A stretch of DNA of 64,000 nucleotides from a virus: IMG/VR virus record IMGVR_UViG_3300033121_002167, positions 1 through 64,000 of that record, one strand, 5' to 3'. Numbering within the stretch: position 1 is the first letter of the stretch; each line of letters opens with the position of its first letter. Position numbers and translations under genes: made by a program. Below are positions 52,909 to 53,466 of the stretch, piece by piece. The notes below the pieces were generated by a model. It did no database searches. It was not told where the DNA came from and worked only from the letters and a program-made list of their open reading frames with translations.

Positions 52909-53466
52909 TCATTTTGCTTTGACTACCTTTGAACTTGTTCGATCTCGTGGTTCAACCCACTGGACACCGAGCAAATCGAAGAAATCTCGCTCCTCAGGAG
53001 CGTGAACTTGCGCGCCATCTGGCCGCGTTGGCAAGCAACCCAGCATCCGGCCGCCGCCAGAAACTTTCTTCCAAATCGAAAACATCTTCGGAACAAACCC
53101 ACCGTGGACGTTACCGTTCGGAGCCGTTGCAGACCCAGTTCTCATGCACAGCAACGAGCCCCAGTTCGCCGGCGTTGCCACGAAGACATCTAGCTTGATT
53201 CCTTCTTCAAGGAGGAGGCGCAGGTACTTCGCACCAACCTTTGGTGGCCATTCGATGATGTCAGGAACGCCAGGCTTGATGAACTTTCCTCGCGACCGAA
53301 GAGCACCAAAGAGAGCCTCGTAATCATCAACAATGATGACAAGCTCGATGTCTTTGACTGTCTCCTTCTCACGGCGGACTGACCCAGCGATCTCTGCTCG
53401 CTTCACTGCTGGTCCGATGAGCTTGAGCAAGGATTCTCCGATGCTACGAGCCTTCGACAGTTCCAT
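52909..53466 (-). CDS. minimal family-X DNA polymerase (Pol beta palm+thumb only; ASFV Pol X-like)
   Basis: 'AGSVRREKETVKDIELVIIV' ~ ASFV PolX 'VGSLRREEKMLNDVDLLIIV'; 'LDVFVATP','EERDFFDLLGVQWVEPRDR' ~ Pol beta C-terminus; 185 aa. Confidence 0.7.
   Translation of the reverse strand: MELSKARSIGESLLKLIGPAVKRAEIAGSVRREKETVKDIELVIIVDDYEALFGALRSRGKFIKPGVPDIIEWPPKVGAKYLRLLLEEGIKLDVFVATPANWGSLLCMRTGSATAPNGNVHGGFVPKMFSIWKKVSGGGRMLGCLPTRPDGAQVHAPEERDFFDLLGVQWVEPRDRTSSKVVKAK

Follow-up and report, generated by a model that had tools for sequence, protein, structure and literature searches.

The 64-kb stretch of DNA analysed here (positions 1 to 64,000 of IMG/VR virus record IMGVR_UViG_3300033121_002167; hereafter the window) carries on its minus strand, at 52909–53466, a 185-residue gene that we identify as coding for a genuine but pared-down DNA polymerase of family X (Pol beta-like) from an uncultured jumbo phage, with polymerase activity predicted from its conserved sequence features. 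We refer to this gene and its product as mini-PolX. The enzyme probably serves in excision repair of the phage genome, most likely by filling short gaps. More tentatively, we consider it possible that mini-PolX represents a large, unnamed phage clade of the smallest family-X polymerases, independent of the African swine fever virus (ASFV) enzyme, re-wired at the active site and partnered in jumbo phages with a flap endonuclease (FEN) as a two-gene equivalent of bacterial Pol I. Both the enzyme family and this type of architecture are already known; what is new is a large phage clade, so far uncharacterised, whose active site differs in a distinctive and invariant way.

The mini-PolX gene and its motifs

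The open reading frame (ORF) listing of the window contains an ATG-to-stop ORF of 185 aa exactly at these coordinates, in agreement with an earlier sequence-only reading of the same DNA, which had left the strand unstated. Its product has a mass of 20.3 kDa and a pI of 9.5, and the gene lies within a dense same-strand array, 16 nt past the upstream stop codon and 10 nt ahead of the next ORF. The nucleotidyltransferase (NTase) motif quoted in that reading is present at residues 28–46, and the C-terminal block that it had claimed was likewise found. The gene and its motifs are placed as follows:

52909..53466, minus strand: mini-PolX gene, palm plus C-terminal subdomain only
53329..53385, minus strand: NTase/triphosphate-binding motif G28-S29-V-R31-R32...D39-I-E41, GSVRREKETVKDIELVIIV, residues 28–46
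53182..53190, minus strand: predicted third metal ligand D93, followed by the invariant F95 (phmmer to Thermus thermophilus PolX, hhalign to Pol beta)
53131..53145, minus strand: M108-R109-T-G-S motif (phmmer to T. thermophilus PolX and family alignment)
52939..52995, minus strand: C-terminal PolX thumb block EERDFFDLLGVQWVEPRDR (Pfam, hhalign), matching SEKDIFDYIQWKYREPKDR of Pol beta

The homologues, the invariant catalytic residues and the tight gene packing place the ORF and its motifs far beyond chance. A promoter and terminator scan around the gene gave nothing above shuffled expectation (14 versus 11.7±3.7; 18 versus 14.3±3.5).

Downstream of mini-PolX, four consecutive small ORFs of 56, 70, 70 and 81 aa occupy 51667–52463 on the minus strand, separated from it by an 83-aa ORF (52647–52898) and another of about 70 aa (52453–52662). 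The four share by eye an N-terminal P-G-x-[LI]-[LVF]-[LI] motif and look like tandem paralogues.

Assignment to family X

A search of 5.8 billion proteins returned 53 homologues at E≤1e-3, of which 51 had E≤6e-47 and lengths of 184–214 aa; 45 family sequences make up the alignment on which residue conservation was assessed (A1). Searched singly, the window protein matched Pfam DNA_pol_B_thumb over residues 148–176 (E=4e-5; 23.8 bits, cut-off 25) and the Pfam palm domain at E=0.096 (13.4 bits, gathering threshold 25). It covered only positions 175–317 of the 571 in the NCBIfam PolX equivalog (E=5e-5), and phmmer against the PDB returned T. thermophilus (Tth) PolX at E=2.7e-6. The thumb domain was matched by 42 of the 45 family members, and farther relatives reached 30–48 bits against the cut-off of 25. 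Used as a query, the family profile recovered Tth PolX at 4.5e-6 and Pol lambda at 5e-4 over residues 3–176, while hhalign aligned the family with Pol beta over 140 columns, extending to the Pol beta C-terminus.

Structure comparison pointed to the same enzymes. The AlphaFold2 model of mini-PolX (pLDDT 96.7, pTM 0.90) found Tth PolX and Pol lambda as its best Foldseek matches in the PDB, with E-values of about 1e-10 to 1e-9. Comparison values by enzyme were 15.9 for Pol lambda, 15.4 for Pol beta, 14.9 for ASFV Pol X, 14.8 for Leishmania Pol beta, 14.6 for TdT, 13.8 for Deinococcus PolX, 12.5 for Thermus PolX and 11.4 for Pol mu. The protein has a nucleotidyltransferase palm of the Pol beta type, bearing the hG[GS]-x9-13-Dh[DE]h motif, and the structures nearest to it belong to PolX enzymes, not to other NTases. 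The best profile and structure matches are not to KNTase, ANT, MNT, CD-NTase or GlnE, the sort of non-polymerase NTase that the sequence-only reading had set against its own assignment.

That reading had also described a protein of palm and thumb only, and an architecture of palm plus C-terminal (thumb) subdomain, at about 170–190 aa, is borne out. No 8-kDa deoxyribose-phosphate (dRP) lyase domain, helix-hairpin-helix (HhH) DNA-binding subdomain or PHP exonuclease was found in the 185-aa protein, in which only 27 residues precede the GS motif; the lyase and HhH parts are likewise missing from ASFV Pol X, an accepted member of the family. We weighed whether the absent N-terminal domains come from the other half of a split gene and rejected this: the DUF5049 gene upstream adjoins PolX in only 4 of 38 loci of the close clade (defined below), and no other directly upstream neighbour that could supply them is conserved across these loci.

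An altered, invariant active site

In A1 (n=45), the residues G28, S29, R31, R32, K34, D39, E41, D93, F95, R109, T110 and G111 are invariant, as are S136, G138, G139, E158, E159, F163 and R176. D39, E41 and D93 are the equivalents of the Pol beta metal ligands D190, D192 and D256; all three positions are acidic throughout, the second being Glu where the canonical residue is Asp. The GSVRR segment (28–32), which in PolX enzymes specifically binds the dNTP triphosphate, and the TGS turn (110–112) before helix N are invariant or nearly so. Beyond A1, the DhE form occurs in 143/149 diverse cluster representatives and 88/90 loci, and the full signature, GSxRR-x6-DhE ... hDhF ... [M/I]RTG[S/P] ... 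EExDhF...EPxxR, was found in 143 of those 149 representatives and in 88 of the 90 loci examined. Searched as a regular expression, [M/I]RTG[S/P] was present in 79/90 loci; R109 is present in 45/45 sequences of A1.

Starting ahead of the third carboxylate and running to the end of the TGS turn, phmmer aligns the query with Thermus PolX without a gap, and the Tth correspondences are D39=D198, E41=D200, D93=D243, F95=R245, M108=Y258 and R109=L259. The Tth numbering is sound, since the chain-residue count reproduces the K263A mutation site of 3B0X, and the Pol beta sequence used was checked against 1BPX. Tth R245 and L259 correspond in turn to Pol beta R258 and F272 and to ASFV F102 and F116 (PMC5330486). 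From this alignment and these published correspondences, it follows that the family departs from canonical PolX at four sites: Glu replaces Asp at the second ligand, Phe stands at Pol beta R258, an invariant Arg at F272, and Met or Ile at Y271, the 'steric gate'. Canonical enzymes combine DxD with Arg at 258/245 and Phe or Leu at 272/259, whereas the phage family has the pair inverted (Phe, Arg). In Pol beta, R258, F272 and D192 form a switch by which metal binding and subdomain closure are coupled, and an inverted Arg/Phe pair beside a longer carboxylate resembles a re-wiring in which the changes compensate one another. If this holds, the re-wiring could bring unusual properties, such as a looser choice of sugar, a changed use of metals or another way of closing; in an active enzyme, the D-to-E change together with the Arg/Phe swap would amount to a naturally occurring test of how Pol beta closes.

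Relation to ASFV Pol X

The sequence-only reading held mini-PolX to resemble ASFV Pol X closely. ASFV Pol X is, however, not its nearest relative, the profiles favouring Thermus PolX and Pol lambda. The family profile scored ASFV Pol X at E=0.26 (4.5e-6 for Tth PolX), BLASTP aligned only 38 residues around the NTase motif, hhalign aligned 35 columns with a probability of 12%, and ASFV Pol X was absent among the phmmer matches of the query to the PDB. ASFV Pol X itself scores about 27 bits against Thermus PolX or Pol lambda and about 14 bits against the phage family.

The likeness to ASFV Pol X (pO174L; PDB 1JAJ, 5HR9) lies in the same two-subdomain architecture and in a collinearity that, as had been claimed, runs end to end in a global MAFFT alignment (23% identity). 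The ASFV motif quoted in the earlier reading, GSLRREEKMLNDVDLLIIV, is correct (the ASFV Pol X sequence used is 100% identical to PDB 1JAJ), and 10 of its 19 positions are identical in the query. Residues common to the two proteins under MAFFT are G28, S29, R31, R32, D39, D93, F95, T110, G111, E159, P173 and R176, including the Phe after the third carboxylate (LDLF with F102 in ASFV, LDVF with F95 in the query). Identity nevertheless amounts to only 18–23%; the second-ligand motif is DxE in the query and DxD in ASFV; ASFV H115 and F116 are replaced by M108 and R109; and the query has two insertions, at about residues 65–75 and 113–123. The ASFV 5'-phosphate pocket (R125, T166, R168) and His115–Arg127 platform were not recovered in the query: R168 (Pol beta R328; PMC5330486) corresponds to V171, with V or I across the family, and R125 could not be placed owing to an insertion. 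The one is a phage protein and the other a protein of a eukaryotic virus, for which gap filling as a base excision repair polymerase is experimentally proven (PMC5330486). Most likely, the minimal architecture arose independently of ASFV or diverged very anciently, the identity being too low for proof.

Comparison with other PolX enzymes

Bacterial PolX1 (Tth PolX, 3AU2/3B0X), Pol lambda and Pol beta all carry the 8-kDa lyase and the HhH fingers/thumb subdomain, and bacterial PolX additionally has a PHP exonuclease that the phage family is without. The recently described PolX2 group (Venclovas and co-workers, NAR 2026, PMC12926913) also does without the N-terminal 8-kDa and PHP domains while conserving the active site; its members, from bacteria, archaea, eukaryotes and viruses, are experimentally uncharacterised (PMC12926913). 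PolX2 is defined by an extra alpha-helical C-terminal domain, whereas the query, compared here with the PolX2 description only, ends 9 residues past R176. A few family members of 281–393 aa have C-terminal extensions lacking a Pfam match, and a link between these and PolX2 is possible.

Among deposited phage genomes, the counterpart is a 318-aa 'DNA polymerase family X protein' of the Rhizobium jumbo phage RHph_TM30 (QIG71157; L003:5530-6486), 26% identical to the query. It shares with the clade GSIRR, the xRTG[SP] motif (reading xRTGP) and Glu at the second ligand position. It differs in carrying about 155 extra N-terminal residues, among them HhH-like GIG/GVG motifs, and is therefore not minimal; its triad appears degenerate by eye (E-I-E, with the third Asp not obvious), suggesting that the protein may be catalytically degenerate. 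The top structural match in BFVD has 318 aa and is presumably the same protein (TMq 0.79). Among the best BFVD matches, which are ≤24% identical, there is also a family-X protein of Harvfovirus, a giant virus; at 174 aa it is a further minimal form.

Abundance and spread of the family

Minimal Pol X enzymes had been taken to be rare outside ASFV, a view overturned by 6,373 clusters at 50% identity and at least 346 IMG/VR viral contigs. An exhaustive hidden Markov model search of 1.84 billion 50%-identity representatives gave those 6,373 matches at E≤1e-3, 2,984 at E≤1e-10 and 60 at E≤1e-30. With the family profile, canonical PolX such as the Thermus enzyme reaches no more than about 29 bits, a score that in a library this large misses E≤1e-3, and we therefore infer that most of the 6,373 belong to the clade. 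Among the best 149 new profile matches, 130 are ≤230 aa, with a median of 201 aa, and nearly all of the top 150 fall within 156–230 aa. In members of 156–165 aa every motif is kept, with Met1 and the C-terminal EPxxR at the two ends; ASFV Pol X, usually given as the smallest polymerase, is longer at 174 aa. The shortest with full motifs, at 156–159 aa, are the metagenomic P0184, P0105, P0200 and P0210 (alignment A3).

In IMG/VR, the relatives form a close clade of 50–58% identity, on contigs of up to 298 kb, and a distant clade of 32–39% identity on phage contigs of about 30–70 kb. The exact window protein is absent from the contig index, in which a 96–98% identical version is present (P0001, L008). 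Mini-PolX is common in uncultured phages and essentially absent from catalogued resources. Across 50,697 deposited phage genomes, the sole matches were the 318-aa Rhizobium-phage PolX genes, and tblastn of the diverse family representatives P0184 and P0094 against deposited phages found none; PHROGs holds no family for mini-PolX, giving one chance-level match of 0.11, and BFVD no close entry. A scan of GTDB genomes yielded 2 contigs of metagenome-assembled genomes, with peptide patterns specific to the close clade that say little about cellular genomes. Phage mini-PolX is not described in the accessible literature, where ASFV Pol X is presented as 'the most distinctive DNA polymerase' and 'a minimal version of PolXs' (PMC5330486, PMC11646218). 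These data indicate that two-subdomain PolX is widespread in uncultured bacteriophages, where it makes up a coherent clade; the clade has an invariant active-site signature of its own, and some members are smaller than the ASFV enzyme.

Genomic context and repair genes

The source of the window is an uncultured large (jumbo) phage. The window is collinear with a 140-kb IMG/VR contig at 97–99% nucleotide identity, a 313-kb contig carries near-identical proteins, and phage marks within the window include PHROG matches, T4-like RNase H and Rnl2 genes, Seg-like GIY-YIG endonucleases and a GroEL gene. Megablast of window positions 45–64 kb against the 50,697 phage genomes gave no match. Mini-PolX is set among DNA-repair genes, and its strand also carries the following:

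32542..33474, minus strand: UvdE UV-damage endonuclease (Pfam UvdE 3e-52)
37130..37945, minus strand: Fpg/Nei bifunctional DNA glycosylase/apurinic-apyrimidinic (AP) lyase (Pfam Fapy_DNA_glyco 1e-12, H2TH 4e-16, C-terminal domain)
38250..38696, minus strand: HhH-GPD superfamily DNA glycosylase, 148 aa (Pfam PF00730 2.4e-10)
40467–41039, minus strand: NUDIX
44985..46178, minus strand: FEN-type 5'-3' exonuclease, T4 RNase H-like (Pfam 5_3_exonuc_N 9e-17; PDB T4 RNase H 6e-7)
46992..48014, minus strand: T4 Rnl2-like polynucleotide ligase (Pfam RNA_ligase 2e-12; phrog_548 1e-37; PDB 2HVQ 5.7e-6)
57472–57963, minus strand: NUDIX

Of the 38 close-clade loci, 26 have a same-strand FEN homologue downstream of PolX, usually at a distance of 0.1–1.6 kb, and the order recurring in relatives is PolX-FEN-...-NUDIX-(Pyr_excise)-UDPGP-HhH-GPD. 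The HhH-GPD family also stands downstream of PolX-FEN in L001, L004 and L006, and UvdE is close to PolX in only 4/38 loci. In the distant clade, from phages of about 40 kb, the neighbours are DnaB, DnaC-like, ERF, Rad52, NinG, RNase T and DNA methylases, which constitute a DNA replication/recombination module. PADLOC, run on PolX and five neighbours, gave no defence-system match.

Upstream of mini-PolX, at 54175–57229 on the minus strand, lies a synteny block without Pfam or PHROG annotation. Its members are a 359-aa protein (56150–57229), found near PolX in 28/38 close-clade loci, an acidic-tailed protein (54479–55477) and a 144–227-aa protein (54175–54858). At L001, a GIY-YIG gene lies between PolX and FEN.

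Proposed function and alternatives

By analogy with ASFV Pol X, mini-PolX would catalyse two-metal nucleotidyl transfer onto the 3'-OH in gapped duplex DNA, acting distributively and without proofreading; the palm and C-terminal subdomain should be enough for this, because ASFV Pol X works with those two. Repair would start from base excision by the phage Fpg/Nei enzyme, or from incision by UvdE or by way of a monofunctional glycosylase. PolX would then extend the 3'-OH, the T4 RNase H/FEN-like nuclease would clear the displaced 5' flap, covering both long-patch repair and the UvdE-initiated pathway, and the nick would be sealed by the phage Rnl2-like ligase or a host ligase. A dRP lyase would be dispensable, because the Fpg/Nei glycosylase-lyase removes the sugar and FEN can remove the 5' flap. 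PolX and FEN together would thereby amount to a bacterial Pol I split over two genes.

Several observations weigh against this scheme. FEN in the window is 5.9 kb from PolX and not adjacent to it, a spacing that in the window lineage is stretched by insertions. The nearby ligase is of the RNA-ligase-2 type rather than a classical DNA ligase, and occurs near PolX in 5/38 loci; neither an AP endonuclease nor a 3'-phosphatase was found in the window, one of which is needed after Fpg/Nei action. Gene neighbourhood hints at a shared pathway but does not prove one. The scores of the window protein itself fall slightly under the Pfam gathering thresholds (23.8 and 13.4 versus 25), and the activity of every family member is a prediction. 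At the active site, the Pol beta residues of sugar contact and closure, Y271, F272 and R258, are M, R and F here, and conservative Asp-to-Glu changes at Pol beta metal ligands are strongly deleterious; the active-site geometry of the phage family must therefore differ.

Among the alternatives, a role in replication, in which PolX and the T4 RNase H-like FEN mature Okazaki fragments in place of host Pol I, strikes us as unlikely, though not mutually exclusive with repair. It draws on the tightest conserved partner being a nuclease of the T4 RNase H type, the primer remover in T4, and on the position of the distant-clade gene within DnaB, DnaC-like, ERF and Rad52 modules. Phage replicative polymerases, however, normally fill Okazaki gaps themselves, and both the window and relatives repeatedly carry the genes of lesion-specific enzymes, namely Fpg/Nei, HhH-GPD, UvdE and Pyr_excise, within the same block and on one strand. 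We regard as improbable a polymerase that incorporates ribonucleotides or tails ends and acts with the Rnl2-like ligase, as in LigD-type end joining or ribo-patch repair. Rnl2-like ligases prefer a 3'-ribo nick, and the gene for such a ligase lies 4.9 kb from PolX in the window and 0.3–0.4 kb from it in L001 and L029; yet a ligase is near PolX in just those 5/38 close-clade loci and in 0 distant-clade loci, and no Ku or end-binding partner was seen. Met/Ile at the steric gate (Pol beta Y271, Pol lambda Y505) and the invariant Arg at F272 would also fit such an enzyme, but side-chain identity is weak evidence here because sugar discrimination by Pol beta rests largely on backbone atoms.

Two further readings have very little probability. 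In one, mini-PolX would be a PolX-derived nucleotidyltransferase that has lost DNA polymerisation and modifies, for example, RNA, a small molecule or a host protein in anti-defence. The non-canonical active site (DhE, F95, R109), the lack of dedicated DNA-binding domains and the seemingly degenerate triad of the related 318-aa Rhizobium-phage PolX are all compatible with it, as is the loss of polymerase activity by some prokaryotic PolX (Prostova 2022, as cited in PMC12926913). The other, slimmest of all, is an error-prone 'strategic mutator' that would, like ASFV Pol X, diversify the phage genome. Here the determinants of dG:dGTP misincorporation by the ASFV enzyme are not kept (H115 to M108; R168 to V171), and the gene sits among fidelity-restoring glycosylase and NUDIX genes; in its favour are the absence of a proofreading domain, the minimal architecture shared with the low-fidelity ASFV enzyme and the equivalence of F95 with ASFV F102.

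Should the excision-repair reading hold and the enzyme be active, phages, and jumbo phages especially, would possess self-contained excision repair running from glycosylases or UvdE through FEN and PolX to ligase, an analogue of the pathway in ASFV and giant viruses. An active family would further open the minimal needs of templated DNA synthesis to study in many natural variants, and could offer a new minimal scaffold for polymerase engineering and a pool of very small polymerases for biotechnology.

Other features of the window

The plus strand between 5500 and 19800 holds about 50 back-to-back small ORFs of 55–126 aa (126 aa being the maximum), many with ATGA stop/start overlaps. All-versus-all BLASTP resolved several small paralogue families, with examples at 7232–7405, 8948–9115, 9112–9285, 9500–9679, 9885–10064 and 11275–11493. 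Stop-codon recoding was considered for this region (5.5–19.8 kb) and rejected: no frame is without one particular stop, and the ORFs abut with ATGA overlaps. Directly beyond it, at 19824–22511 on the plus strand, is an 895-aa protein that matches the shoulder domain of Major Vault Protein (2e-30) as well as vault repeats and SPFH/Band 7, unusual for a phage.

A papain-family (Peptidase_C1) protease of 660 aa at 41651–43633 on the minus strand is split by an intein with an HNH endonuclease; its orthologues in L001 and L006 are intein-free, at 274–289 aa. GIY-YIG/NUMOD homing-endonuclease genes lie at 57987–58832 (minus), 46133–46816 (minus), 39659–40543 (plus) and 62945–63925 (minus). The first of these is precisely missing from IMG/VR contig L008 (97–99% identical), where 35 nt replace 885 nt, and it therefore represents a mobile presence/absence polymorphism. 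The region 30571–36513 on the minus strand includes a GroEL-type chaperonin, 44–46% identical to phage and bacterial GroEL, together with an AAA ATPase (33702–35594, minus) and an ADP-ribosylglycohydrolase (35599–36513, minus). A tRNA-Leu(TAA) gene is present at 1478–1561 on the plus strand.

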